Of a stretch of 24,000 nt of DNA, positions 11,333 to 24,000 are shown one piece after another. Position numbers and translations under genes: made by a program. The notes under the pieces were generated by a model. That model worked only from the letters and a program-made list of their open reading frames with translations, was not told where the DNA came from and did not search any database. The first letter of the stretch is position 1. The number at the start of each line of letters is the position of its first letter. This DNA is from Acaryochloris marina S15 (GTDB lineage Bacteria > Cyanobacteriota > Cyanobacteriia > Thermosynechococcales > Thermosynechococcaceae): positions 3,802,385 to 3,826,384 of the forward strand of contig NZ_CP064923.1 in NCBI RefSeq assembly GCF_018336915.1, given 5' to 3'.

Positions 11333-12334
11333 GTGATTAAGCTTATTTATTGGGGAACCCCACAGTTTGCGGTTCCCAGTTTAGAACGTCTGCTCCAAGC
11401 ACCTGATATAGAGGTGGTAGGGGTGGTCACTCAGCCGGATAAACGGCGCGGCCGAGGAAGCAAAGTGTCTCCATCCCCTGTGAAAGGGGTGGCGATGGAA
11501 GCAGGATTGCCGATTTGGCAATCTCACAATATAAAAAAAGATCAAGGGATTTTGGCAGAGTTGAGATCGCAAGGGGCGGACGCCTTTGTTGTAGTCGCCT
11601 ATGGCCAACTTCTCTCCCCTGAAATCTTGGCTATGCCCCGCTTAGGCTGTATTAATAGCCATGGCTCCTTGCTTCCCAAATATCGAGGGGCTGCCCCCAT
11701 TCAGTGGGGGCTATATCATGGTGAACCCCTAGCGGGTATCACAACTATGCTGATGGATGAAGGCATGGATACCGGCGATATGCTGTTGAACAAAAGTATT
11801 GAGATTGGCCTGCTGGAAAATACCCTGGATGTGGCGATTCGTTTGGCTGATTTGTCGGGTGACTTGTTGATAGATACCTTGAACCAGCTAGACCAACACA
11901 CCATTACGCCTACGCCTCAAGATCCTGAACAGGCAAACTATGCTCCCTTGATTCAGAAATCTGATTTCTCATTAGATTGGTCTCGATCTGCGATCGCACT
12001 TCACAATCAGGTTCGAGGATTTTCACCCAGCTGTGTGACTCAATTTCGAGAATCTGGCCTTAAAATCATGGCAACAGCTCCCCTAGGGGAAGCCTATGCA
12101 GCTGTTCTACCAAAAGAGTTAGCAGCTCTCACTCAGGTCATGCCAACTTCAGACGCTGACCCCGGTAGCATCGTTTATATTGCGCCCCAGCAAGGTCCAG
12201 TTGTGCAAACGGGTGATGGATTATTGTTATTGCGATCCCTGCAAATGGCGGGTAAACGTCGTCAGTCGGGGGGGGACTTTGCCAATGGATTCAGACTCTC
12301 TATGGGGGAGCAGTTGGGAGAAACGGCGGCCTGA
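11333..12334 (+). CDS. fmt: Methionyl-tRNA formyltransferase
   Basis: 333-aa ORF with a GTG start. The N-terminus IYWGTPQFAVPSLERLL, the catalytic block NSHGSLLPKYRGAAPIQW and the C-terminal LQMAGKRRQSGGDFANG are all typical of Fmt. Confidence 0.92.
   Translation: MIKLIYWGTPQFAVPSLERLLQAPDIEVVGVVTQPDKRRGRGSKVSPSPVKGVAMEAGLPIWQSHNIKKDQGILAELRSQGADAFVVVAYGQLLSPEILAMPRLGCINSHGSLLPKYRGAAPIQWGLYHGEPLAGITTMLMDEGMDTGDMLLNKSIEIGLLENTLDVAIRLADLSGDLLIDTLNQLDQHTITPTPQDPEQANYAPLIQKSDFSLDWSRSAIALHNQVRGFSPSCVTQFRESGLKIMATAPLGEAYAAVLPKELAALTQVMPTSDADPGSIVYIAPQQGPVVQTGDGLLLLRSLQMAGKRRQSGGDFANGFRLSMGEQLGETAA
11990..11997. repeat. HIP1 octamer GCGATCGC
   Basis: Exact match read from the sequence. Confidence 0.95.
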
Positions 12335-13278
12335 AGATATTGGGTAATTTCAGCCCAGGCTGGTTTTGCACCGCTACAAAATCGGGAAAAACTGAGAAAG
12401 CCATGGACCATTCCTGGATAGTCCGTTATTTGAGTGGGAACACTGGCCTGTTGTAAGCGCTGACCATAGGCTTGGCCTTCATCTCGTAAGGGATCATAGG
12501 CAGCTGTGATCACCAGGGCAGGCGGTAATTGGCTTAAGTCTTCAGCTAAGAGTGGCGAAAAATAGGGGGACTGAATATCTGCAGGCGACTTGGCATACTG
12601 ATTAACGAAGTGTTCCATGGCAGGTTTTGTTAATACCGGTGCATCCGCATACTGATCCATAGAGGGATGGTTAAGGGTGCCATCCAAGGCAGGATAAAGA
12701 AGAATCTGTCTCTGTAGAGTTGGACCATTCAGATCGCGGGCCATCAGACAGACAGCAGCAGCCAGGTTTCCCCCAGCACTATCTCCCATCACCATCAGTT
12801 GTTGAGGATCAGCCCCTAAAGCCTCAGCGTTTTGGGCTGCCCATTGGGTCACATCATAGCAAGCTTCTAAGGGAGTGGGATAGGGGAATTCAGGTGCTAA
12901 TCGATAGGCTACAGAGAGGATTAAAGCCCCACTTTGATAGGCAATTTGGCGACAGAAGGCATCATAGGTGTCCAGATTACCCGTTACCCAGCCACCGCCA
13001 TGGAAGAAAACAATGCAGGGGAGGTGGGGATTCAAGCTAGGGGAATAGAGCCTAATGGGAATCTTTCCATGGCGACCCGCCACCCATTGATTGCTAATTT
13101 TGGGCAGTTTGCGTTTGCGCCCATGCTTTAGCCAATTGATAACAGCCGGGCGCGTTGTTTCATTCCTTTGACGCAGTGCTTCAGGGCTTAACAGCTCAAT
13201 CGACTGGGAGCGGTTTAATAACCTATCTAGAATCTGAATTTTCCAGTCCAATTGATACTTCTTTGCTAATGACTGCAT
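12262..13278 (-). CDS. Alpha/beta hydrolase, family IV (HSL-like) esterase/lipase
   Basis: It has the oxyanion motif HGGGW, the nucleophile elbow GDSAGG, an acid residue in DPLRDEG and a His in MVHGF. The track ORF extends to 13389, but that extension overlaps the upstream gene by 107 nt. I place the start at Met38 (ATG 13278..13276, MQSLAKKY...), 4 nt after the upstream TAG. Confidence 0.85.
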   Translation of the reverse strand: MQSLAKKYQLDWKIQILDRLLNRSQSIELLSPEALRQRNETTRPAVINWLKHGRKRKLPKISNQWVAGRHGKIPIRLYSPSLNPHLPCIVFFHGGGWVTGNLDTYDAFCRQIAYQSGALILSVAYRLAPEFPYPTPLEACYDVTQWAAQNAEALGADPQQLMVMGDSAGGNLAAAVCLMARDLNGPTLQRQILLYPALDGTLNHPSMDQYADAPVLTKPAMEHFVNQYAKSPADIQSPYFSPLLAEDLSQLPPALVITAAYDPLRDEGQAYGQRLQQASVPTQITDYPGMVHGFLSFSRFCSGAKPAWAEITQYLQAAVSPNCSPIESLNPLAKSPPD

Positions 13279-13282
13279 TGGC

Positions 13283-14389
13283 CTAACAATAGGACTGCAA
13301 GGTGCCGCGTCTGCGAATATCAAGGGTGGCACAGTGGAAGGAACCCCCAAAGGGAGCAAAGTTGATAAAGGGACATTTAATCGGTTCAAATCCCCAATCT
13401 TTGAAGGCTGCGATCAGTGAAGTTTGATCTTCCTCTACGATCACCCGCTTCTCATCCAGCATCAAGACGTTTAGGCTAATCCACTTGCTGCACATGGAGG
13501 GGACGCCCGTGATCGGATCTGGCTCGGGGGGAACCAGCATATCCCAGGATTTAAGGGCTTTAGGAAGCTTATCTACATCGATATATTCAGGGTTAATCAA
13601 AGCCTTTCCTGGAGCCAATGGAATAAAGGTAGAGTCGATATGCATGGGGGTGGGGCAAGAGCTATCAATCTCGTGAATTTGATAGCGATCGCCTAAGTGG
13701 CGTCTGAGCCAAGTAATCCCGGCTTGATTGGTGACATTGCTTTGGGTCACAAATAAATCGCGGCCGCAGCGGACAAAATCGGCAGCATCAAAGACCGGTT
13801 CAAACTCATTAATCACATACCGAATGGGTTCTCCCTTGGCGGGGGGCTTAAAGGAATAATCGAACAGATCGTCCGTTAGCTCTGGCTTTGGTGCAGAGGT
13901 CCAACGGGCTCCCTGGGCAAAATATTCCTTAAAGAGGGGACGATAGGCATGGGTTTCAAAATAGCGGCACCGCCATGCCATGGGGGTTTCAATAATTTCG
14001 TCTCCCAGCACCATAAATCCATCGCGAGGACAGGCAGTACAAAATCCCTTAGAAGACCAATCTAATGCCTTATAGCGCTTGGTTCCTTTAATGACTTCAG
14101 GGCGTCGAACGACCACCCCTTCAGATTCTAGGATGTGAATAAATTCATCTAATTCCCGCTGGGCTTTTTTGAGCAAGAAGCCTGGATATTTCTGTCCCGC
14201 GAAAATCCGGTATAACCGGGCGGTACTGGGAGGAATATTGTAGGTAACGGTCACGTGATAAGGCGGAATGATCGCCCCTTCTAGGTGACCCACAATCACT
14301 TCTTCTAATGGATCCCATTCATTATAGGAATTGACTGGACAGGGGGTTGCAATCGTCGTATCCATCGAGTCTGTCATCAATTCCGTCAT
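13283..14389 (-). CDS. Amidinotransferase of the L-arginine:glycine amidinotransferase (AGAT/StrB1/CyrA) family
   Basis: 368-aa ORF. Long blocks are identical or near-identical to vertebrate GATM as I recall it: SYNEWDPLEEVIVG, EIIETPMAWRCRYFE, W(T)SAPKP, FEPVFDAADF, SKWISLNVLMLDEKRV and RRRGTLQSY. The catalytic triad is conserved: Asp in FDAADF, His in PMHIDSTF and Cys in GGSFHCAT (Cys353, codon 13331-13333). A strong RBS, GAGGAAGGA, precedes the ATG. Confidence 0.88.
   Translation of the reverse strand: MTELMTDSMDTTIATPCPVNSYNEWDPLEEVIVGHLEGAIIPPYHVTVTYNIPPSTARLYRIFAGQKYPGFLLKKAQRELDEFIHILESEGVVVRRPEVIKGTKRYKALDWSSKGFCTACPRDGFMVLGDEIIETPMAWRCRYFETHAYRPLFKEYFAQGARWTSAPKPELTDDLFDYSFKPPAKGEPIRYVINEFEPVFDAADFVRCGRDLFVTQSNVTNQAGITWLRRHLGDRYQIHEIDSSCPTPMHIDSTFIPLAPGKALINPEYIDVDKLPKALKSWDMLVPPEPDPITGVPSMCSKWISLNVLMLDEKRVIVEEDQTSLIAAFKDWGFEPIKCPFINFAPFGGSFHCATLDIRRRGTLQSYC
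13685..13692. repeat. HIP1 octamer GCGATCGC
   Basis: Exact match read from the sequence. Confidence 0.95.
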
Positions 14390-15263: not shown

Positions 15264-17924
15264 ATGGAACAGCTAAAACGTTGGAAAAAGATTAGTTCTC
15301 CAGTCAATCGAGAGTTGCCGCTGCGTTTTATTCTGATTGTTCTATTTGTTCTGCAATTATTGGTTTCTGTTGGCCTCGTAGGCTACTTATCTTTGCGTAA
15401 TGGTGAAGAGGCGATAGAGGACTTAGCCAATCAGTTGATGTCAGAGGCAGGAGATCGGATTTCAGAACGACTCAATATTTATCTGTTGACTCCTCATCAA
15501 GTCAATCAACTGAATGCGAATGCCCTCGATATGGGGCAACTCCAGCTCAATGATCTCCAGAGTATGGAACGCCATTTCTGGCGTCAGAGCCAAGTGTTTA
15601 AGTTGATTAGCTATATTCAATTTGGCAATTCGCAAGGGGAGTTTGTAGGCTTAGCGGTCAATGATGATGGTACGCTCACCTACCAAGTGACTGAAAAGAC
15701 GGGAGCACTGCAAACCTATAGTATTGATACCAAGGGCGATCGCAAACAGTATCTTGAAACATCCCCTAATTTTGATGCTCGTCAGCGTCCCTGGTACATT
15801 GTGCCTCAACAGGTTGATAAATCTGCCTGGACAGAAATCTATCCCTGGGTAAGTCCGCCCACCTTAGCCATCACGTTAGGTCAGCCCTATTATGATACTC
15901 AGGGAAAATTCCAGGGCATTTTAGCGACGGATCTATCCCTGGCCCAAATTAGTGATTTCCTGAAAGAATTGAGTTTGTGTGACTCTGGCCGGACGTTTAT
16001 TCTGGAACGCTCTGGTGACATTGTTGCAACTTCATCCAATGAGCTGCCGTTTGTCTGGCGGAATCATCGGCCCGGAAGATTGATGGCTAACCATAGTGAA
16101 GATGGTATTGTCCAGGCTACTGCTACTTATTTAGCAAAGCAAACGGGAGGGCTTCAGCAGATCAATGCTCGACGCCAAACCCAATTCTCTATTGAGGGGC
16201 AGCGATATTTTCTACAAGTGATGCCGCTGCAAGATCAGCATGGATTAGATTGGCTCAGCGTTTTGGTTATTCCTGAGTCTAGCTTTATGGCTCAGATCGA
16301 TGCCAACACGCGAACAACACTGTTGCTCTGTTTTCTAGCGTTGGGGTGTGCGATCTATTTGGGCATTTGTACTGCCAGCTGGATCGCTAGACCCATTCTC
16401 CGTTTCAGCCAGGCTAGCCAAGCAATGTCCTCGGGGCAGTTTGATCAAACGGTTTCTGTTAAAGGATTTAAGGAAATTGGTGTTCTCCAGCGTTCCTTTA
16501 ATCGCATGGCTGAAAAACTGCAGACCACTTTTTGTGATTTGGAAGCGGCCAATCTAGCCTTAAAGAAAGAAGTGGCAGAGCGACAACGGGCCGAAGAACA
16601 GTTTAAGCATCTGGCACTGCACGATCCTTTGACGGGGTTCCCCAACCGCGCTTTTTTTATGGAGCAATTGGAACGAGCGGTCAAGCAGGCGCAGCGTCAT
16701 CCCCATTATTTATTTGCAGTCCTGTTTATTGATTTAGATCGGTTCAAGATTGTCAATGATAGCCTCGGACATCAAGTGGGGGATCAGTTACTAGGTGCGA
16801 TCGCACATCAGCTTCATTCCCTTGTGAGAGCTACAGATATCGTGGCTCGATTGGGGGGAGATGAGTTTGTCATTCTTTTAGAACCCATTGAGGAAGTCAA
16901 CGATGCCGTGCGAGTGGCCGATCGGATTGTGCAAGAATTGAGCTCTCCTATTGATTTAGGGAATCGGCAGGTCTTTATTTCAGCCAGTGTGGGTATAGCC
17001 CTGAGTTCGCCAGATTACAGCCAGGCTACGGATATTCTCAGGGATGCAGATATCGCCATGTATCGGGCCAAAAATCGAGGCAAAGCTTGTTTTGAAATCT
17101 TTAATGAACGGATGTATATGCAAGCATTGGATCGGTTGCAAGTAGAAAATGACTTGCGGCAAGCCATTGACTACCAACAGCTCCGGGTGTTTTATCAGCC
17201 CATTGTCGATATCCAGACCGGTAAATTATCTGGGTTTGAAGCGTTAAGTCGCTGGCCTCATCCAACGCGAGGATTTATTACGCCAACTGAGTTTATCCCG
17301 ATTGCCGAAGAGACGAGCTTGATTGTCCCTCTTGGGGAATGGATTCTGCAAACGGCTTGTCAGCAGATGGCAACTTGGCTGCAAACCTATCCTGCTGCAG
17401 TGCACTACTCCATCAGTGTAAACATGTCAATTAAGCAACTCAAAGATCCAAACCTGCTCACCAAGGTTGATAGAGCTTTAGAACAATCTGGATTAAACGG
17501 TCACCAATTGTCTTTAGAGCTGACTGAAAGCATTTTGATGGAGAATGTGATCGAATTAAAGGTAATTTTAAATCAATTGAAAGATAGAGGAATTCAACTC
17601 AGTATTGATGATTTTGGTACAGGGTATTCTAGCCTCAGCTATCTCCATCTTTTTCCCTTCAATACAATCAAGATTGATCAATCTTTTATTAATCGGATTG
17701 GTGAACAGGGCGAAAATCAAGAAATTATTGAAACGATCATTAGCTTGGCCAATCAGTTGAAAATGGATGCTGTTTCGGAGGGGGTTGAATCCAAACAGCA
17801 ACTCAATTACTTGAAGAAGCTATCTTGTCAGAAAGCCCAAGGAAACTATTTTTCTCAACCTTTGTCGGGTGATGCCGCTGAAGTCTTTATTCTCAATAAT
17901 CCTCAGCTAATTCAAGTTCATTAA
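15264..17924 (+). CDS. Membrane sensor with periplasmic dCache-like domain, HAMP, GGDEF and EAL domains (c-di-GMP cyclase/phosphodiesterase)
   Basis: 886-aa ORF with two TM helices (FILIVLFVLQLLVSVGLVGYLSL; LLLCFLALGCAIYLGICTASWIA) bracketing a ~300-aa extracytoplasmic domain. A HAMP-like segment follows. The GGDEF motif is intact (LGGDEF, 16854-16868) and is preceded by an RxxD I-site (RATD). The EAL motif (EALSRW, 17238-17246) is accompanied by DDFGTGYSSL, KIDQSF and EGVE. Confidence 0.9.
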   Translation: MEQLKRWKKISSPVNRELPLRFILIVLFVLQLLVSVGLVGYLSLRNGEEAIEDLANQLMSEAGDRISERLNIYLLTPHQVNQLNANALDMGQLQLNDLQSMERHFWRQSQVFKLISYIQFGNSQGEFVGLAVNDDGTLTYQVTEKTGALQTYSIDTKGDRKQYLETSPNFDARQRPWYIVPQQVDKSAWTEIYPWVSPPTLAITLGQPYYDTQGKFQGILATDLSLAQISDFLKELSLCDSGRTFILERSGDIVATSSNELPFVWRNHRPGRLMANHSEDGIVQATATYLAKQTGGLQQINARRQTQFSIEGQRYFLQVMPLQDQHGLDWLSVLVIPESSFMAQIDANTRTTLLLCFLALGCAIYLGICTASWIARPILRFSQASQAMSSGQFDQTVSVKGFKEIGVLQRSFNRMAEKLQTTFCDLEAANLALKKEVAERQRAEEQFKHLALHDPLTGFPNRAFFMEQLERAVKQAQRHPHYLFAVLFIDLDRFKIVNDSLGHQVGDQLLGAIAHQLHSLVRATDIVARLGGDEFVILLEPIEEVNDAVRVADRIVQELSSPIDLGNRQVFISASVGIALSSPDYSQATDILRDADIAMYRAKNRGKACFEIFNERMYMQALDRLQVENDLRQAIDYQQLRVFYQPIVDIQTGKLSGFEALSRWPHPTRGFITPTEFIPIAEETSLIVPLGEWILQTACQQMATWLQTYPAAVHYSISVNMSIKQLKDPNLLTKVDRALEQSGLNGHQLSLELTESILMENVIELKVILNQLKDRGIQLSIDDFGTGYSSLSYLHLFPFNTIKIDQSFINRIGEQGENQEIIETIISLANQLKMDAVSEGVESKQQLNYLKKLSCQKAQGNYFSQPLSGDAAEVFILNNPQLIQVH
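15736..15743. repeat. HIP1 octamer GCGATCGC
   Basis: Exact match read from the sequence. Confidence 0.95.
16797..16804. repeat. HIP1 octamer GCGATCGC
   Basis: Exact match read from the sequence. Confidence 0.95.
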
Positions 17925-18087: not shown

Positions 18088-19176
18088 TTAGGAGGCTATT
18101 CGATAAGCCGGAAAAAACGTGGATTGTTGAAGTTTCTCAACCGGTACATCAATAGATTGAGCTCGATGTTGGAGTAATTCAGAATAGGCTTCGGGATTGA
18201 TAATCAGTCTGAGGGTATAAAAATCATGCTGCTGCCTAGAAAAGCCGGACTTAAATTTAAATAACCGATCTTCCTGAGATCCTCCTACTCCCCCGCCCAG
18301 GTGTAGAAATTCATTGCCCCGCTCTTTTGCCCAGAGGCGCATATGATGGAGCAATAAGCTAAAGGGAGACTGGGACATAAATGCCGTACGAGTCCCACCT
18401 AAGTGGGCTTGAACGATGCCACAACATTCAAAAAATAAGCTGGCAGCAATAATTTGGTCGGTATTTTCTACGATGCAGCAGTGCAGCTTGTCACCTAAAT
18501 TGAGTAAGTCTTCAAAATAGTCTTTATTGAAGTAATAGGATTGAGTGGCCGAAACCCGATTCATTGTCTCGGTATAAATGGACGTAAAGACTTCCATGCT
18601 CTCAGAATAAGGAACGATTCTGGCTTGCAGTCCTAACCGCTTGCACTTATTAATGGTGCTTTGGTGCCCTTTCCTTGTATGGGCCCAAATCTTGGACTCC
18701 GATTGCAATAAATCAACTGAAACAGTTACACCATCTGGGGTGGCAATAGAGGAATCAAGGTGCTCAATATACTGAGCGCTTAAAATAGGATGAAGTCGAA
18801 AGAAAGCTGAACAAATATTTTTAGCTTTAAAAGCTTTAATGACCTCTTTGAGTGCTGACTGAATAAATGCTGGGTCTTTTATTGCTTCTTGACTCAAGAC
18901 TATTCCCGAGTATCCATAGGGAGAGATAATATCGAATATTTCTCCACCTTTTAGATGCTCAGGGTAAAAGTCTTTACAGGAACGAAGCAAGTAAGGTAAA
19001 AAAAGTATTTTGCTTTCTTCTTGAATAATAATCGCTTCAGCAGGAGATTCTAACCGTTTGGATTCAATGGAAACGTATGCAGGTAAGTGATAAATATCAT
19101 GTCGAATACCATCCAGAACTTGAAGCCAGAGAGGATTATCTAATGCAAGTATCTGCACATCCATTTGCGATTTCAC
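18088..19176 (-). CDS. FemAB/CelD-like (Acetyltransf_6-type, double-GNAT) transferase, paralog B
   Basis: 362-aa ORF, paralogous to the upstream gene. Shared blocks are HDIYHLPxY, SPxGYSG, ICSAFxRLHP, NKxKRLGL, ECxGIVQxxLGGT, WAKxRGNxxLHLGGGVG, FSxQxHxFYT and FFPAYR. The LHLGGG...K..FS tail is typical of FemAB-like/BioF2-like acyl(aminoacyl)transferases found in glycan loci. Confidence 0.7.
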   Translation of the reverse strand: MKSQMDVQILALDNPLWLQVLDGIRHDIYHLPAYVSIESKRLESPAEAIIIQEESKILFLPYLLRSCKDFYPEHLKGGEIFDIISPYGYSGIVLSQEAIKDPAFIQSALKEVIKAFKAKNICSAFFRLHPILSAQYIEHLDSSIATPDGVTVSVDLLQSESKIWAHTRKGHQSTINKCKRLGLQARIVPYSESMEVFTSIYTETMNRVSATQSYYFNKDYFEDLLNLGDKLHCCIVENTDQIIAASLFFECCGIVQAHLGGTRTAFMSQSPFSLLLHHMRLWAKERGNEFLHLGGGVGGSQEDRLFKFKSGFSRQQHDFYTLRLIINPEAYSELLQHRAQSIDVPVEKLQQSTFFPAYRIAS

Positions 19177-19224
19177 CTATGACTTATATTGCAGACTTGG
19201 TAAAAAATGAGTGGAATCTAAACC

Positions 19225-20304
19225 TCACTGGGGATTAGATTTGTATCGGTAAGCTGGAAAAAACTGAACAGAGTTTAAATGATCAAGATCAATATTATGG
19301 GATTTTGAATGGGATTCAAGGAGCTGTTTATATTGTATCGGTTTAATGATAATAGATGCTGTATAAAACCCATGCCTTTGTTTCGAGAAATTCGCTTTAT
19401 ATTGATAAAGACCATCTTCCGTACATCCTACTCCTCCGCCTAAATGGAGCATGGTGTTACCGCGCTGCTTTGCCCACAAACTAGTTTGGTAAAACTCCAA
19501 GCTAGTGGGAGAAAGTTTTAATCCTTCAGGAGTTGTGCCCCCTAATAATCCTTGGACAATGCCAGAACATTCAGAATAGAGTCCAGCAGAAATTATTTTA
19601 TTTTGGTATTCAACAACACAGACAAATAGTTTATGACTAAGATGCTTTTGTAATAGATAAAAGTAATCTCGATTGAATGAAAAAAAGCTGGTCTCAGCCT
19701 CGACCCTCTGCATCGTGGCTTCATAGATATTACAAAATTCAGTGATGTATTCAGAAAATGGCTTGACCTTAGCTATTAACCCCAGTCGTTTACCTTTGTT
19801 GATTTTATTCCTCTGACTTTTATGGGTATGACTCCAAAGGTCTGATTCTGAAAGCTCTAAATTAATGGATACCGTTTGACCCACTTTTTTGATGAGAATG
19901 TCCTTCATCCCTTGGGGATGAACTGTATTGAGACTAGGGTGAAGGCGAAGAAATGCTGAGCAAATCCCCTGTTCTTTAGCTAAGTGGAGAAATTGCTGCC
20001 AAGCATTAGGTCTAAATGCTGCATCTTCTAAGGCTGCTGGACTGAGTAAAAATCCAGAATAACCATTGGGGGAAGTGATGTCATAAACTTTAGCGGATGC
20101 TGCTGGAATGGAATGGCAAGCACGTCTTAAATAGGGAATAAGACAGACTTTTTGCCCCTCTGTAATTAGGATTGCTTCTGGAATACTTTGGGTTCTTAGG
20201 GCCTCACAATATAGATATTCAGGTAAGTGATAAATGTCGTGAGCGAGGTGAGTCAGGGTGCCTGACCATAAGGGATCGCGCCAATCCAATACTTTTATTT
20301 TCAT
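19225..20304 (-). CDS. FemAB/CelD-like (Acetyltransf_6-type, double-GNAT) transferase, paralog A
   Basis: 359-aa ORF that starts 6 nt after the PhyH-family stop. It shares the conserved blocks listed for paralog B, with roughly 40-45 percent identity by eye. Confidence 0.7.
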   Translation of the reverse strand: MKIKVLDWRDPLWSGTLTHLAHDIYHLPEYLYCEALRTQSIPEAILITEGQKVCLIPYLRRACHSIPAASAKVYDITSPNGYSGFLLSPAALEDAAFRPNAWQQFLHLAKEQGICSAFLRLHPSLNTVHPQGMKDILIKKVGQTVSINLELSESDLWSHTHKSQRNKINKGKRLGLIAKVKPFSEYITEFCNIYEATMQRVEAETSFFSFNRDYFYLLQKHLSHKLFVCVVEYQNKIISAGLYSECSGIVQGLLGGTTPEGLKLSPTSLEFYQTSLWAKQRGNTMLHLGGGVGCTEDGLYQYKANFSKQRHGFYTASIIIKPIQYKQLLESHSKSHNIDLDHLNSVQFFPAYRYKSNPQ

Positions 20305-20310
20305 TACTGA

Positions 20311-21231
20311 TTAAGATTCTGACCATAGTTCTGGAAATACATTCGGGTCACTAAAGTCTGGATCGTCGTTGGGGAGGGTTCGACAAAGCTGTTCGTCAAA
20401 CATATGAATGGCTTGACCTTTGTCATTCTTGTAAGGGCGATAGCGGTTGGAGGCATCTTGAAGATGCACTGCGATCGCAAGGCGGTTTCGTTGACTGTGG
20501 TTCGGGTAGCTGCCATGGATGGTCCAACAGTTATGGAAGCTGACTTGGCCTTTACGTAGGGTGAGGGGAATTTCTTTGATTGAATGATTAATGCCAAGCT
20601 GCTGGAGCTGTGTCGATAGGGTGGTTAGGTCAGTCTGACTAAAGCCTCGCAGATGCTCTAAGCCTGACCATTTATGACTGCCATCGATCACCACTAATGG
20701 CCCCATGTCAACATCGCAGTCATGGAAAGGAATCCAAGCAGTTAGCAGCTGATCAGAGGTACAGGTGGCCCAGTAAGCCCGATCGGCATGCCAACCGACG
20801 CTAGTTTGGGCGGTGTGATCCTGAGGGGGCTTGTAAACCAGTTGATCATCCAGGAGGCGGATTTGTTGAGTGCCCGCTAATTTTGCTGCAATTGCCCCCA
20901 CCATTGGCTGGAGTGCTAATTGCCTCAGGGCTTGACTTTGTAAAGACACAAATTCGTTATTGCGAATAGTGTCAAAGCCGTCACTGGGCTGCCAATTACT
21001 GTAGCCTTCGTTGACGGGAAGAACCGTATCACGCTCCCCCCGGTAGTAGCTTTCCGTGCCCGCGAGCGCTTGCTCAATAACGGTATCCGCAATGACGGGT
21101 TGAGAGATAAACCAGCCATGCTGACGATAGAAATCAACATCTTTGTCCGTGGGTAGCAGAGCCTGTTGCCGGGCACTTAAGGATTGATCCAGAGACTCCC
21201 ATTGCATAGTAGATAGGGCTTGAGGGCTCAT
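20311..21231 (-). CDS. Phytanoyl-CoA dioxygenase (PhyH) family Fe(II)/2-oxoglutarate oxygenase
   Basis: 306-aa ORF with the HxD iron motif in VGWHADRAYW, the LTAWIPFHDCDVDMGPLVVIDGSHKW block, and a distal His and Arg in TIHGSYPNHSQRNR. Its ATG overlaps the upstream gene's TGA (ATGA at 21228-21231). Confidence 0.85.
   Translation of the reverse strand: MSPQALSTMQWESLDQSLSARQQALLPTDKDVDFYRQHGWFISQPVIADTVIEQALAGTESYYRGERDTVLPVNEGYSNWQPSDGFDTIRNNEFVSLQSQALRQLALQPMVGAIAAKLAGTQQIRLLDDQLVYKPPQDHTAQTSVGWHADRAYWATCTSDQLLTAWIPFHDCDVDMGPLVVIDGSHKWSGLEHLRGFSQTDLTTLSTQLQQLGINHSIKEIPLTLRKGQVSFHNCWTIHGSYPNHSQRNRLAIAVHLQDASNRYRPYKNDKGQAIHMFDEQLCRTLPNDDPDFSDPNVFPELWSES
20471..20478. repeat. HIP1 octamer GCGATCGC
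   Basis: Exact match read from the sequence. Confidence 0.95.
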
Positions 21232-21863
21232 CGATCTAGGGTCCCCATAAACTCTTCTGAGGTCGCAAAGCCATCTTGATTAATGCCATCTCGCCGCAGC
21301 ACTTTCCACACCGTCAGAGCTAGGATTTTGCAATCGAGCCACAGAGACCAGTGGTCAATGTACCAAACATCCATCTCAAATTTAGATTCCCAACTAATGG
21401 CGTTGCGGCCGTTAATTTGAGCTAGTCCCGTAATCCCTGGTAATACTTCATGACGACGATTTTGTTCTGGGGTATAACGGTCAAGATACTCGACAATTAA
21501 GGGGCGAGGACCTACAAGACTCATATGCCCTAGAAACACATTCCACAATTGAGGCAGCTCGTCCAAACTTGTCTTGCGGATAAATTGGCCAAAGGGCGTC
21601 AACCGCTGTTCATCAGGAAGAAGTTGGCCATTACTATCCCGCTGATTAGTCATGGTACGGAATTTATAGAAGGTAAAAATTTGGCCATTTTTACCAGGGC
21701 GAGGTTGGGTGAACCAGGAGGGCCAACCCATCTTGATGCAGATTGCGATCCCAATGATCCCTAAAATGGGTGTGAGCAGGATAAGGGCCAACAACGCAAC
21801 TGTGCGATCAATAACCCACTTCGAAACAATCTGAATTTGGTGATGGACAGAGGAAGAAGCCAT
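21228..21863 (-). CDS. Small monotopic phosphoglycosyl transferase (bacterial sugar transferase, PglC/WbaP-C-terminal type)
   Basis: It has a single N-terminal re-entrant helix (ALLALILLTPILGIIGIAICI), FYKFRTM, the catalytic Asp-Glu in SLDELPQLWNV, SLVGPRP and PGITGLAQINGRN. The track starts at TTG 21872. I prefer the ATG at 21863..21861 (MASSSVHH...). Confidence 0.88.
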   Translation of the reverse strand: MASSSVHHQIQIVSKWVIDRTVALLALILLTPILGIIGIAICIKMGWPSWFTQPRPGKNGQIFTFYKFRTMTNQRDSNGQLLPDEQRLTPFGQFIRKTSLDELPQLWNVFLGHMSLVGPRPLIVEYLDRYTPEQNRRHEVLPGITGLAQINGRNAISWESKFEMDVWYIDHWSLWLDCKILALTVWKVLRRDGINQDGFATSEEFMGTLDR

Positions 21864-22821
21864 GATGATCAATCGTCAAAGTCGCTAAAAGATGAACGGA
21901 TTATCCTGGTAACTGATGTACCCCTCGTCTTGAGATTAGGAGTTAAACAATAAGATTCACTGATTCAACTGCTGTAGAAATATCTTTTGATTAAACCTGA
22001 ACAGATCTTTAGAAGAACTAATATTTTTGTAGATCAAAAAATATTAATTTATTTTTGGATTCAAGATGCTCATTAATCTTTGCATCAGTATAGTCCTTTA
22101 TGAAAAAAAATTGAACTAAATTGATACTGATGATAGTTAGCTTTTAGGAGTCGAAGAGAAAATCCTTTGTGCATATATCAATGGAGCCGGACATAATCGA
22201 AGTTAGTAAAGACCTGAATAACAACAGTGAAGTAGCTGTTGTTTGGCACTAACGTATGTGAAGCCATGGAGCGACTCTTATCATTCTCTATCGTTAGCAT
22301 AGAAAGTTTTGAAGCTATATATCTCTATTCCCTGATAAAGATGGATGGGCTCAAGAGGACAATTGTCAGCCATCGAAAATGATTATGTTCTCCAATCTCA
22401 AGTTAAGAGAGTCTGAGGTTGATTTCTATCGAGAAAGGAGAGGCGGTTTGACGGGGTGATGGCAGTTCAGAAGTGATCATTATCAATTGAATAGACAACT
22501 GCATGATTCCAAGTTTTTCTTATGCTTCAAAGTGTATAAGGGGCAAAGGTTAGCTACTTTTTATGCATTTTATAGATGTTTTGCATCCAACATCAAATTT
22601 TTTGTATGAAGCCAAGAACTGATCTTAATTGACCGTTAATGTCTCTCTGTTAATGAATATGGGACCCCCTTTCTCTGTTAACTTGTGTTCTGGGAGACGA
22701 ATGATCCTGATTGAGCCCAAGAACTTCTGGGAGATAAACCAACCTAGAAACCGTCACCTATAGTGGGAGAACATCAGAGCCTTAGGAGCCTGGTAAATCC
22801 TTCTCTGGACTGGGGGCATCT

Positions 22822-24000
22822 ATGTCTCGGCTATTAAAATCCAACCATCCTTTTCGTTTGCTTCTGTATTTGGAATGGATTTTGCTGGGGATTGCCCTAT
22901 TAACTTTGTTTGTGCCTTTCCCCCGCCATCATTTTCTGTTGCCCCACGTCATTCCAGGGCGAGGGTTGAGATTTCCCTTAGGGATATTGCTGAGTATTCT
23001 GACTCTGGCTGGTTTAGGGCTCAAATTGCCTATCCATCAATCCCAAAAGGTGAAGGCCTTCTATACCTGTCTGGGGCTATGTCTATGTTGGGCAACGGTG
23101 TTTATGGGGGGGCGGCTCCGAGACTACTTTATCCCGATGCTATTGATTGTGGTGATTCGGGCCTGCTTATTGTTTCCTTGGAAGCAGCGATTGATGGTTG
23201 CATCCGTTGCCTATGGCTCTTTTCTGGCCCGCTTAATGATGGGACCCCAACGTTTTCGTCCACCGCGATTGGGTCCTCCCCCCCCTTGGCGGGGCAGGGG
23301 ACTATCCCAAGAATTGGTGGCGAGTTTGCAGTTGCGGAGTGCCCTCTTATTTGGCTTGGTCTTGATCTTTGTATTGCTGATGGTGGGAGCGCTCTTAACG
23401 GAGCATCTCAGTCGAACAGAATTAGCATCTGCGAATCAGCGCCTGCGGAAATATGCCTTAATGATCGAAAATCAAGCTACCTTGCAGGAGCGGAACCGAA
23501 TTGCTCGCGAAATGCATGATTCCGTTGGCCATTCCCTAACGGCTCAAAGTATTCAGCTCGAAAATGTAGAGGTATGGATGGCCACTGATAGGGCTAAAGC
23601 TTCTGATCACTTGACGAAAGCCCGATCCCTCGGGAAAGACGCACTCCAAAATGTCCGGCATACCGTTGCTACCCTTCGTAATAACCCGCTAAAAGGTCAA
23701 TCCTTATCCCAAGCCCTCACCAAAATGACCCAGGAGTTTGAACGCACGACATCGATTCAGGTTCAATTCTCTACTCACCTAGAGACTCCGGTCCCTAGAG
23801 AAATGGCTGCAGCTCTCTATCGTTTGGTGCAAGAAGCCCTGACTAACGTTTCCAAGCACAGTGAAGCGACCCAGGTTACGATTAATTTGACTGAGCAGGA
23901 GATGGAGTTGTCTCTTAAGATTTCTGACAATGGCAAAGGATTTCTGCCGGGGAAAAATACGACGGGCTTTGGTCTTCAAGGGATGCAGGAACGGACAGTG
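22822..24000 (+). CDS. Membrane sensor histidine kinase, HisKA_3 (NarL-partner) type, N-terminal 393 codons (3' end beyond right window edge)
   Basis: Absent from the ORF track because it has no in-window stop. From ATG 22822 it reads MSRLLKSNHPFRLLLYLEWILLGIALLTLF..., with about 5 hydrophobic helices. A coiled coil follows, then the H-box ERNRIAREMHDSVGHSL (His codon 23515-23517), the N-box LVQEALTNVSKHS and the G-box GFGLQGMQERT. An upstream in-frame TAG lies at 22783-22785. Confidence 0.88.
   Translation, partial: MSRLLKSNHPFRLLLYLEWILLGIALLTLFVPFPRHHFLLPHVIPGRGLRFPLGILLSILTLAGLGLKLPIHQSQKVKAFYTCLGLCLCWATVFMGGRLRDYFIPMLLIVVIRACLLFPWKQRLMVASVAYGSFLARLMMGPQRFRPPRLGPPPPWRGRGLSQELVASLQLRSALLFGLVLIFVLLMVGALLTEHLSRTELASANQRLRKYALMIENQATLQERNRIAREMHDSVGHSLTAQSIQLENVEVWMATDRAKASDHLTKARSLGKDALQNVRHTVATLRNNPLKGQSLSQALTKMTQEFERTTSIQVQFSTHLETPVPREMAAALYRLVQEALTNVSKHSEATQVTINLTEQEMELSLKISDNGKGFLPGKNTTGFGLQGMQERTV

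Follow-up and report, generated by a model that had tools for sequence, protein, structure and literature searches.

The diNAcBac initiation modules of Campylobacter Pgl (PglF/E/D/C/A) and Bacillus subtilis Eps (EpsC/N/M/L/D) use a small monotopic phosphoglycosyl transferase (PGT) (PMC10186338; PMC10653937). [quoted passage not shown] 2023, PMC10186338). In the pathways to BD-12/streptothricin-type antibiotics, the Fem-fold enzymes Orf11/Sba18/Sbb17 transfer glycine from Gly-tRNA onto the amino-sugar amine of streptothrisamine, a precedent for aminoacylation of an amino sugar (PMC12945691; PDB 9wqy). FemX of Weissella viridescens shares this double-GNAT architecture, and in Staphylococcus the enzymes FemX, FemA, and FemB act sequentially on murein, where the acceptor is the epsilon-amine of a stem-peptide Lys. 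A further Fem-like family, TIGR03019 (FemAB family XrtA/PEP-CTERM system-associated protein), has long been noted in exopolysaccharide loci, to our knowledge with no demonstrated function. Among PhyH-type oxygenases, SnoN and SnoK of nogalamycin biosynthesis act on a scaffold-attached amino sugar.

In a 24,000-nucleotide stretch of the Acaryochloris marina S15 genome (NZ_CP064923.1, positions 3,802,385 to 3,826,384; here, the window), a four-gene cluster encodes a PGT, a PhyH-type oxygenase, and two Fem-like proteins. We lean toward the reading that a surface-polysaccharide locus of the Wzx/Wzy-dependent type was split in this Acaryochloris lineage and that the operon is the half that serves initiation and decoration, with the FemX-like pair and the oxygenase probably adding an uncharacterised amino-acid decoration to the first sugar.

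Gene organization and evidence of function

All four genes lie on the minus strand. They encode a PglC-type small monotopic PGT (21228-21872; a 214-amino-acid ORF from TTG), a PhyH-family Fe(II)/2-oxoglutarate dioxygenase (20311-21231; 306 amino acids), a divergent FemX-fold paralogue that we call FemA (19225-20304; 359 amino acids), and a FemX-fold transferase, FemB (18088-19176; a 362-amino-acid ORF from GTG). Junctions read from the sequence comprise a 4-bp overlap of the PGT and PhyH genes ('cgATGAgc', 21228-21231), a 6-nt PhyH-FemA spacer ('tcagta', 20305-20310), and a 48-nt FemA-FemB spacer (19177-19224). ORF coordinates and junctions agree with a preliminary description of four genes with this overlap and these gaps, and the junction sequences bear out its view of an operon-like packing. 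Two starts more likely lie inside the ORFs. The PGT would begin at the ATG at 21863, giving 211 amino acids, because orthologues are called at that length and tblastn alignments start there; FemB would begin at the ATG at 19164, because orthologues have 358 amino acids, the length it would then have, and alignments begin at M5, and the FemA-FemB gap would therefore be 60 nt. Residue numbers for the PGT follow the 214-amino-acid ORF. Terminator-like matches in the region showed no excess (5, against 4.0 +/- 2.0 in shuffled sequence).

The operon has a convergent neighbor, a gene for a Cache-HAMP-GGDEF-EAL protein (15264-17924, plus strand), assigned from its Pfam domains and considered here as context only; the same 886-amino-acid GGDEF-EAL gene adjoins the quartet in the related loci L002, L089, L090, L095, and L096. 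The remaining genes of the window include those for TamB, a CDP-alcohol phosphatidyltransferase, PsbO, a sigma factor, and a genuine Met-tRNA formyltransferase (259 bits against a cutoff of 201.5), and their domain content confirms that the window holds no further glycan-assembly genes. On the other side, an intergenic region (21873-22821, no strand assigned) separates the operon from a divergent HisKA_3 kinase gene, which is truncated by the right edge of the window. This region is presumably the site of promoters and a leader and may have a regulatory role. A 284-bp block within it (22117-22400) is absent from A. marina MBIC11017. The region is 80% identical to that genome over 672 aligned nt, a JC distance of 0.23 against dS values of 0.49 to 0.65 for the adjacent genes. 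No Rfam family matched 21873-22821.

Because all four proteins exceed Pfam gathering thresholds and dN/dS relative to MBIC11017 is 0.05 to 0.16 (PGT, 0.05; PhyH, 0.16; FemA, 0.11), similar to flanking housekeeping genes, we conclude that the genes are real and have retained function. An operon apart from its usual partners, and missing two additional genes found in L089 and L090, might be read as the non-functional remnant of a genome rearrangement. We regard this as highly improbable, as all four ORFs are intact, their dN/dS resembles that of the GGDEF-EAL gene and of fmt, several strains share the arrangement, and the noncoding DNA upstream has changed less than synonymous sites have.

A PglC-type priming enzyme

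The PGT matches Pfam Bac_transf (PF02397) over profile positions 1-178 of 179 (E 2.4e-64; 216.6 bits against a cutoff of 27) and aligns without gaps to solved PglC (8g1n/8e37) over 193 residues at 57% identity (E 7e-67), a stronger match than that to WbaP (~1e-35). Its earlier assignment to the PglC/WbaP-type PGTs stands. The catalytic dyad D104-E105 (SLD104E105LPQ), the nucleotide motif G121PRP, and the Ser/Thr-Pro break of the re-entrant helix (ILLT34P35I) occupy the same alignment columns as their counterparts in PglC, and a YKFRTM motif is present. The aromatic box is complete (Y129, Y133, W161, F165, and F208), the mobile loop reads GQLLP where the solved PglC chain has GELLP, and the C-terminus reaches beyond the F position of the box. 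The E117-K196 salt bridge is not conserved: the Glu is kept (VE128Y) and the Lys is replaced by Glu ('SEEF' vs 'TEKF'). Judged by its sequence, the PGT is the predicted priming enzyme of the pathway, of the PglC type with diNAcBac-type fingerprints.

Two FemX-fold transferases

FemB matches Pfam FemAB (PF02388; E 3e-9, 36.5 bits against a cutoff of 24) and Acetyltransf_6 (E 6e-8). It is 50 to 56% identical to copies in Nostoc, Calothrix, and Pleurocapsa and is the orthologue of a widespread cyanobacterial FemX-fold transferase. FemA passes the threshold for Acetyltransf_6 (24.1 bits against a cutoff of 22) and has no PF02388 match. It forms a deep, long branch in an NJ tree and, among the sequences sampled, is restricted to the Acaryochloris lineage. 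Every family-invariant column is kept in FemA, including the catalytic Lys in 'YQYKANF', and a double-GNAT fold is predicted from its full-length 44% identity to FemB.

A confident AF2 model of FemB (pLDDT 92.6) was compared with known structures by Foldseek, and its best PDB matches were FemX, Sba18/Sbb17, and FemA (E 2e-14 to 2e-12), with TM scores of 0.69/0.74 for FemX (E 2e-14) and up to 0.80 for Sba18/Sbb17, the second-best match. Across 38 sequences, K309 of FemB is invariant and F308 is at least 90% conserved; these correspond to FemX K305 and F304, and FemA has Y-K at the same positions. FemB is also FemX-sized and lacks the coiled-coil insert of Staphylococcus FemA, and the tandem arrangement of the paralogues is reminiscent of the Staphylococcus enzymes, which act in sequence. 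The FemX/Sba18-like fold of FemB and its catalytic Phe-Lys pair uphold the assignment of the paralogues to the FemAB-type transferases.

The likeness to CelD and a plain acyl transfer, also suggested in the preliminary description, fared less well than tRNA-dependent transfer. As acyl-CoA-dependent GNAT acyltransferases, the Fem-like proteins would acylate the sugar, with acetyl or another acyl group, and it fits this possibility that FemA exceeds the threshold for Acetyltransf_6 only, that database names are mostly "GNAT family N-acetyltransferase," and that tandem-GNAT acyl-CoA enzymes occur lower in the fold search. These enzymes, however, reach TM scores of only 0.32 to 0.50, whereas the top 19 structural matches of FemB are all aminoacyl-tRNA-dependent (FemX, Sba18/Sbb17, FemA, and MprF; TM 0.5 to 0.8), and the FemX catalytic Lys and the aromatic residue before it are invariant or nearly so. 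Fem domains are moreover found fused to genuine acetyltransferases (PglD and Acetyltransf_1), which argues that Fem supplies a different chemistry. We consider acyl-CoA-dependent transfer unlikely.

Far less likely still is a classical FemABX role in building peptidoglycan cross-bridges, with adjacency to the PGT a coincidence. Some database names do read [quoted passage not shown] and there are weak matches to the FemX equivalog model (NF047883), but at 19 to 27 bits against a cutoff of 500 the Fem proteins are not members, and identity to FemX/FemABX is 13 to 15%. Their genes are consistently linked to those for PGT, DegT, GT4, and Wzc, PglD fusions occur, and the neighborhood has no mur or PBP genes. 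The genomic setting is one of polysaccharide rather than murein, and the acceptor presumably an amino sugar rather than Lys. Nor are the Fem proteins members of TIGR03019 (26 to 37 bits against a cutoff of 260), which is the best NCBIfam match for FemA; no PEP-CTERM/exosortase context was seen around the operon. From Orf11/Sba18/Sbb17 they differ in sequence (~17% identity) and in setting, as those enzymes serve a Streptomyces secondary-metabolite pathway with a soluble small-molecule acceptor and no PGT or Wzx/Wzy context.

A hydroxylase-type PhyH oxygenase

The oxygenase matches Pfam PhyH (PF05721; E 3e-22, 80.4 bits against a cutoff of 22). H148, D150, H239, and R250 are invariant among 28 homologues; the first three form the HxD...H iron site, and R250 is the 2-oxoglutarate-binding Arg. 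Because the motif is HxD and not HxA/G, the enzyme belongs to the hydroxylase rather than the halogenase type. Its AF2 model is of moderate quality (pLDDT 74.5), with fold matches at E 4e-16, best to SnoN/SnoK and then to proline hydroxylase (H11), MysH, EctD, and GriE, with which it shares the DSBH fold and the iron triad; identity to SnoN/SnoK and the amino-acid hydroxylases is 18 to 24%. Pfam match, iron-site residues, and fold together support the original PhyH family call. The substrate is ambiguous, since the closest folds act on amino sugars and amino-acid hydroxylases follow close behind, and no NCBIfam equivalog was reached in a search with PhyH. Among related loci, a Fem gene directly follows the PhyH gene in 41/45.

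Related gene sets lie in conventional loci

We surveyed 83 related loci, 80 of them metagenomic and the others from Nostoc punctiforme, Calothrix PCC 6303, and Pleurocapsa PCC 7319, with each figure counting only loci that have enough flanking DNA. Conventional glycan genes were present in 24 of the 27 well-covered loci, and the typical order was GT4, PGT, PhyH, Fem, (Fem), DegT, Wzc. Upstream were GT4 (28/34) and PGT (28/45) genes, and downstream DegT (29/44) and GNVR (23/34) genes. The exact PGT-PhyH-Fem-Fem order recurs in L009, L012, L021, and L035, followed in each by DegT and GNVR. In all three reference genomes the gene set lies inside loci with Wzx, Wzy, and GT4s, together with DegT, GNVR/Wzc, and a PglF-like dehydratase.

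Like the Pgl and Eps modules, related loci have a GT4 gene directly upstream of the PGT (21/34) and a LegC/PseC-type 4-aminotransferase gene directly downstream. Unlike those modules, they usually lack the PglD/EpsM acetyltransferase or have it fused to a Fem domain, and its place is filled by a PhyH oxygenase gene together with a single FemX-fold gene or a pair of them. Only 2 of the 31 loci that combine PGT, Fem, and DegT have a PglD-like gene. Fem is not a simple replacement for PglD, because about 10 of the 83 loci hold both PglD-like and Fem genes and PglD-Fem fusions exist; PglD might serve to cap the new alpha-amine, or the Fem reaction might take place at another position. Fusion proteins include PglD-Fem, PglD-Fem-Fem, ATP-grasp-Fem, GNAT-Fem, and Fem-Fem, and in L091 a PglD-Fem fusion gene is flanked by PGT and DegT, and the stop and start codons overlap.

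A locus probably split in the Acaryochloris lineage

Within the window, genes for a flippase, polymerase, co-polymerase, or glycosyltransferases are not found beside the PGT, and the dehydratase, aminotransferase, glycosyltransferases, Wzx, and Wzy, unlike those of Pgl and Eps, are not adjacent. In the Acaryochloris-lineage relative L089, the quartet has a GT4-Wzy-GT4x3 array directly on its upstream side and keeps the same GGDEF-EAL neighbor. A separate locus, L094, is collinear with this upstream part at 66 to 81% amino acid identity, a divergence equal to that of the operon genes; it additionally has Wzx, DegT, and Wzc, and it lacks PGT, PhyH, and Fem. Detached quartet, PGT-less locus, and the exact FemA of the window all come from one run series (SRR1244795x-61).

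The quartet had been proposed to be self-sufficient, ending in a lipid-linked (polyprenyl-PP) glyco-amino-acid without dedicated elongation, flipping, or polymerization partners. Glycan genes are absent from 18 kb on one side of the operon (in the window) and from about 8.4 kb on its other side (in L002), and the detached form is stable, being present in five or more Acaryochloris-lineage assemblies and subject to purifying selection. A search with the adjacent L089 GT4 also turned up no close orthologue from A. marina MBIC11017, which may therefore have no partner cluster or rely on another one. Against self-sufficiency, a PglC-type PGT requires a modified UDP-sugar, whose synthesis takes a dehydratase and an aminotransferase that the operon does not encode; full Wzx/Wzy loci surround the homologous sets in 24 of the 27 well-covered cases; and a lineage relative (L089) has the contiguous form, while sister strains have a matching PGT-less locus (L094). 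A self-contained minimal system therefore appears distinctly improbable, and the view that the lack of flippase, polymerase, glycosyltransferase, and nucleotide-sugar genes is a property of the pathway finds no support, as the missing genes adjoin the operon in L089 and sit apart at L094. Given the Wzx/Wzy genes of orthologous loci and the separate PGT-less locus of sister strains, the window represents part of a system; the contiguous L089 form and the PGT-less cluster in strains of the same run series make it most likely that it holds one half of a split locus.

A proposed decoration pathway

Context and fusions suggest that a bacillosamine-type sugar is aminoacylated at its C4 amine in a tRNA-dependent reaction and then oxidized. 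In such a pathway, a dehydratase and a LegC/PseC-type DegT aminotransferase from the other half of the locus would make UDP-2-acetamido-4-amino-2,4,6-trideoxyhexose. FemB would move an amino acid from aminoacyl-tRNA to the C4 amine, the slot normally used by the PglD acetyltransferase, and FemA would add a second residue, onto the first or at another position. The PhyH oxygenase would then oxidize the aminoacyl-sugar, after transfer because tRNA donors carry proteinogenic amino acids only. The PGT would place the sugar-1-phosphate on undecaprenyl phosphate, though the steps from the first aminoacylation through this one may follow a different order, and GT4s, Wzx, Wzy, and Wzc encoded elsewhere would build, flip, polymerize, and export the polymer. 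We infer the donor (aminoacyl-tRNA), the acceptor (the C4 amine, on a UDP- or Und-PP-linked sugar), and the amino acid alike.

The chemistry first suggested for the operon, a polyprenyl-PP-linked amino sugar that is aminoacylated once or twice and oxidized, still explains the Fem and PhyH genes best, and no paper in the library searched describes it. Although conventional loci give no account of what Fem and PhyH do, homologous sets, the exact gene order among them, sit inside such loci, which largely bears out the objection that the preliminary description raised against its own proposal.

Operon architecture and the proteins it encodes

All four minus-strand open reading frames of the quartet, and all three junctions between them, lie where the preliminary description placed them. 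The phosphoglycosyl transferase gene (PGT, 21228-21872) overlaps the PhyH oxygenase gene (20311-21231) at 21228-21231, read from the sequence as cgATGAgc, and a 6-nt spacer, tcagta, separates PhyH from FemA (19225-20304). With the ORF start that gives FemB the span 18088-19176, the FemA-FemB spacer is 48 nt. Because of orthologue lengths and the points at which alignments begin, sequence comparison suggests that 21863 and 19164 are the probable positions of the ATG starts of PGT and FemB, respectively, making both genes slightly shorter and the FemA-FemB gap therefore 60 nt. Terminator-like and promoter-like matches were no more frequent than in shuffled sequence, and nothing argues against the prediction of one transcript for the quartet.

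Annotation of the remaining genes bore out the view that the window holds no further glycan-assembly genes: they encode TamB, a CDP-alcohol phosphatidyltransferase, PsbO, a sigma factor, a Met-tRNA formyltransferase, a Cache-HAMP-GGDEF-EAL protein, and a HisKA_3 kinase whose gene extends past the right edge. The Formyl_trans gene was considered as a sugar N-formyltransferase and rejected, as it is a true Fmt; a 214-aa plus-strand ORF at 22875-23519 was also rejected, having no family and lying out of frame inside the kinase ORF. Scans for Rfam families and tRNAs, over the window and the intergenic region upstream, gave no matches. The window belongs to an Acaryochloris; its proteins share 85 to 94% identity with their A. 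marina MBIC11017 counterparts, whose gene order is the same, and a scan of genome contigs with a single protein query gave matches in A. marina only. All four quartet genes are under purifying selection relative to A. marina (dN/dS 0.05-0.16).

The family assignments first made from the sequence hold in Pfam, where PGT matches Bac_transf (E 2e-64), PhyH matches its namesake family (E 3e-22), FemB matches FemAB plus Acetyltransf_6, and FemA matches Acetyltransf_6 only. Judged by its sequence, PGT is a PglC-type enzyme, aligning without gaps to the solved PglC over 193 residues at 57% identity (E 7e-67, compared with about 1e-35 for WbaP). It carries the Asp-Glu dyad, the PRP motif, five of five aromatic-box residues, the G-x-LLP loop, and a long C-terminus; the E117-K196 salt bridge of PglC is not kept. 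Anderson et al. (PMC10186338) identified features such as the aromatic box, the G-x-LLP loop, and the long C-terminus as fingerprints of enzymes that use UDP-diNAcBac.

FemB gave a confident predicted model (pLDDT 92.6), and the best PDB matches in a structure search, FemX, Sba18/Sbb17, FemA, and MprF, are all aminoacyl-tRNA-dependent transferases. TM scores were 0.69/0.74 against FemX and up to 0.80 against Sba18/Sbb17 with the bound amino-sugar scaffold streptothrisamine; acyl-CoA tandem GNATs scored far lower. F308-K309 of FemB is the alignment counterpart of the FemX catalytic pair F304-K305, and K309 is invariant among 38 homologues. FemA shares 44% identity with FemB along its full length and keeps all invariant residues. 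The tree identifies FemB as orthologous to the common cyanobacterial Fem copy and places FemA on a deep branch found, among the sequences sampled, only in Acaryochloris. The label usually given to Fem-like proteins, "GNAT family N-acetyltransferase," is probably misleading.

The H148-x-D150...H239 triad and R250 of PhyH are invariant. Its predicted model is of moderate quality (pLDDT 74.5) and closest to SnoN/SnoK, whose substrate is the nogalamycin amino sugar, followed by amino-acid hydroxylases and MysH. An NCBIfam search returned no functional equivalog.

Homologous gene sets within conventional Wzx/Wzy loci

The preliminary description suggested that the quartet could make a minimal lipid-linked product, and comparison with other genomes did not bear out the reading of it as a self-contained pathway. 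Nostoc punctiforme, Calothrix PCC 6303, and Pleurocapsa PCC 7319 each carry the PGT-PhyH-Fem set as the end portion of a conventional locus, together with a PglF-like dehydratase, Wzx, Wzy, several GT4 glycosyltransferases, a LegC/PseC-type DegT, and GNVR/Wzc, with PglD, an ATP-grasp ligase, or sulfotransferases in some of the three. A family alignment yielded 80 further loci from metagenomes, which were annotated with seed proteins. Their recurrent order is GT4 ... epimerase/dehydratase, GT4, PGT, [X370], PhyH, Fem, [Fem], [ATP-grasp], DegT, GNVR. Counts were made across these and the three reference-genome loci, restricted to those with enough flanking DNA: GT4 upstream in 28 of 34, PGT upstream in 28 of 45, DegT downstream in 29 of 44, GNVR downstream in 23 of 34, and any conventional glycan gene in 24 of 27. 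In 41 of 45 cases Fem lies directly 3' of PhyH. Four loci (L009, L012, L021, and L035) have the exact PGT-PhyH-Fem-Fem order, with DegT and GNVR next in each; in a second large clade of Fem the order is PGT-Fem-DegT-GNVR, with no PhyH. The quartet most likely belongs to a familiar type of system, the Wzx/Wzy polysaccharide pathway in which a PglC-type PGT is the priming enzyme.

Two genes without assigned families recur in these loci. X370, a conserved gene of 357 to 370 aa between PGT and PhyH, is found in many of them (L004, 7884-8996; L007, 7514-8587; about 12 metagenomic loci) and is not present in Acaryochloris; its copies in Nostoc and Pleurocapsa share 52% identity, and Pfam and NCBIfam searches assigned no family. 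In the PhyH-less clade, a 286-aa ORF fills the slot between PGT and Fem (L066, 9113-9973; L062, 5105-5965), for which the same databases gave no family and only a sub-threshold GNAT match.

A probable split locus in Acaryochloris

A more distant member of the lineage, L089, suggests how the quartet may have come to stand alone. Its FemA is 73% identical, it has the same GGDEF-EAL neighbour as the window, and GT4-Wzy-GT4-GT4-GT4 lies directly upstream of its quartet. The operon there is larger, with an additional PhyH-like gene and an MBL/Rieske/SCP2 gene, and L090 has the same set of six genes in its operon. The extra PhyH-like gene lies upstream (L089, 7534-8436; L090, 204-1127) and has no BLAST similarity to the main PhyH; the downstream gene encodes a 512- to 518-aa MBL-fold/Rieske/SCP2 protein (L089, 12233-13789; L090, 4925-6463). 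A tblastn search of the window and of L002, another locus of the lineage, recovered neither these extra genes nor remnants of GT4 or Wzy.

Using the operon-adjoining GT4 of L089 as a query, we found two orthologues at 80 to 81% identity, one in L094, where the order is Wzc/GNVR, DegT, Wzx, GT4, Wzy, GT4, GT4, GT4. This locus is collinear with L089 at 66 to 81% amino acid identity, its DegT is 70% identical to a module-associated DegT, and it lacks PGT, PhyH, and Fem. The DegT of such PGT-less Acaryochloris-type loci is 535 to 536 aa long (L094, 1251-2861, minus strand; L093, 1625-3232), with an N-terminal extension of about 165 residues, without a Pfam match on record, before the aminotransferase domain. 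L093 and L094 come from runs SRR12447958 and SRR12447959, and the detached quartet from SRR12447954 and SRR12447961 of the same series, the last containing the exact FemA of the window. The same search returned no close A. marina MBIC11017 orthologue of the L089 GT4, and a DegT search of PLSDB, which covers plasmids and does not address the chromosome, placed no Acaryochloris record among the best matches. The simplest reading of these sequences is that one contiguous locus in the ancestor came apart, and the genes for initiation and decoration were left by themselves.

Flanking regions of the operon

About 950 bp of intergenic DNA (21873-22821) separates the operon from the divergent kinase gene and shares 80% identity with A. 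marina across 672 nt. This noncoding sequence looks constrained, because its Jukes-Cantor distance of 0.23 compares with a dS of 0.49 to 0.65 at synonymous sites of adjacent genes. The region had no Rfam match. The window and the related locus L001 share a 284-bp block (22117-22400 in the window) that is missing from A. marina MBIC11017 and has no other copies in the sequences compared.

An 886-aa Cache-HAMP-GGDEF-EAL gene (15264-17924, plus strand) is convergent to the quartet in all Acaryochloris-lineage loci seen, and is kept in L002, L089, L090, L095, and L096 despite an intervening gene or a differing upstream side. A link between c-di-GMP and polysaccharide production is plausible. The divergent HisKA_3 kinase gene spans 22822-24000 (plus strand) and beyond (L001, 3305-4570), followed in L001, L095, and L096 by genes for a GerE-type response regulator and then ThiF/rhodanese and JAB proteins. 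Elsewhere in the window, a 368-aa protein without a Pfam family (13283-14389, minus strand) shares 98.4% identity with the orthologue in A. marina (dN/dS 0.014), a constraint equal to that on PsbO. Its gene is overlapped by an ORF at 12262-13389 (minus strand), which is a 375-aa TTG ORF in the window, compared with a called alpha/beta-hydrolase gene in L095.

A proposed aminoacyl decoration of the initiating sugar

Loci with Fem resemble the Pgl and Eps modules for diNAcBac initiation (PMC10186338, PMC10653937) in PGT class, dehydratase, 4-aminotransferase, and adjacent GT4, but mostly lack the PglD/EpsM acetyltransferase of those modules. A PglD-like gene was present in only 2 of 31 loci having PGT, Fem, and DegT.

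An exhaustive profile search gave 2,010 Fem-family representatives (50%-identity clusters, E<=1e-30), spread through cyanobacteria and reaching at least Verrucomicrobiota. Among the best matches were PglD-Fem, PglD-Fem-Fem, ATP-grasp-Fem, GNAT-Fem, and Fem-Fem fusions (P0300, P0323, P0369, P0376, P0317, P0348, P0292, P0244, and P0243; loci L091 and L092). The PglD part is of the hexapeptide acetyltransferase type, and the ATP-grasp fusion is from a Verrucomicrobiota MAG. The PglD-Fem fusion gene of L091 is flanked by the genes for a PglC-type PGT and DegT, and the stop and start codons there overlap.

We tentatively propose, at somewhat less than even confidence, that in a tRNA-dependent, nonribosomal reaction FemB and FemA attach one or two amino acids to the C4 amine of the reducing-end bacillosamine-type sugar of a surface polysaccharide, followed by hydroxylation or other oxidation of the side chain by PhyH. 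Fem enzymes would aminoacylate the C4 amine of the UDP- or Und-PP-linked sugar, and the new alpha-amine would next receive either a cap, from PglD or a GNAT, or an extension, from a second Fem or an ATP-grasp ligase; in the window's operon, two residues would come from FemB and FemA. Oxidation by PhyH is placed after transfer because tRNA donors carry proteinogenic amino acids only. The original interpretation is partly supported: Fem/PhyH decoration of a lipid-linked sugar stands as the best reading of these genes, and the autonomous gene set does not stand. Such decoration appears to be a widespread variant whose chemistry is not described in the literature searched, where nothing relevant was found on Fem-like or PhyH genes in cyanobacterial EPS loci or on bacillosamine in cyanobacteria.

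For genome annotation, a compact "orphan" glycan operon may be half of a split locus. Many O-antigens and capsules bear N-aminoacyl 4-amino sugars, and the enzymes for them are unknown; the Fem family, with its PglD, GNAT, and ATP-grasp fusions, offers a concrete candidate for their biosynthesis. If the proposed chemistry is true, a FemX-like enzyme in the place of PglD would bring amino acids from aminoacyl-tRNA into surface polysaccharides, a previously uncharacterised class of glycan decoration that would add polysaccharide repeat units to murein, lipids, and antibiotics as destinations of aminoacyl-tRNA. It would also define the reducing-end sugar of a widespread type of cyanobacterial EPS or O-antigen locus.
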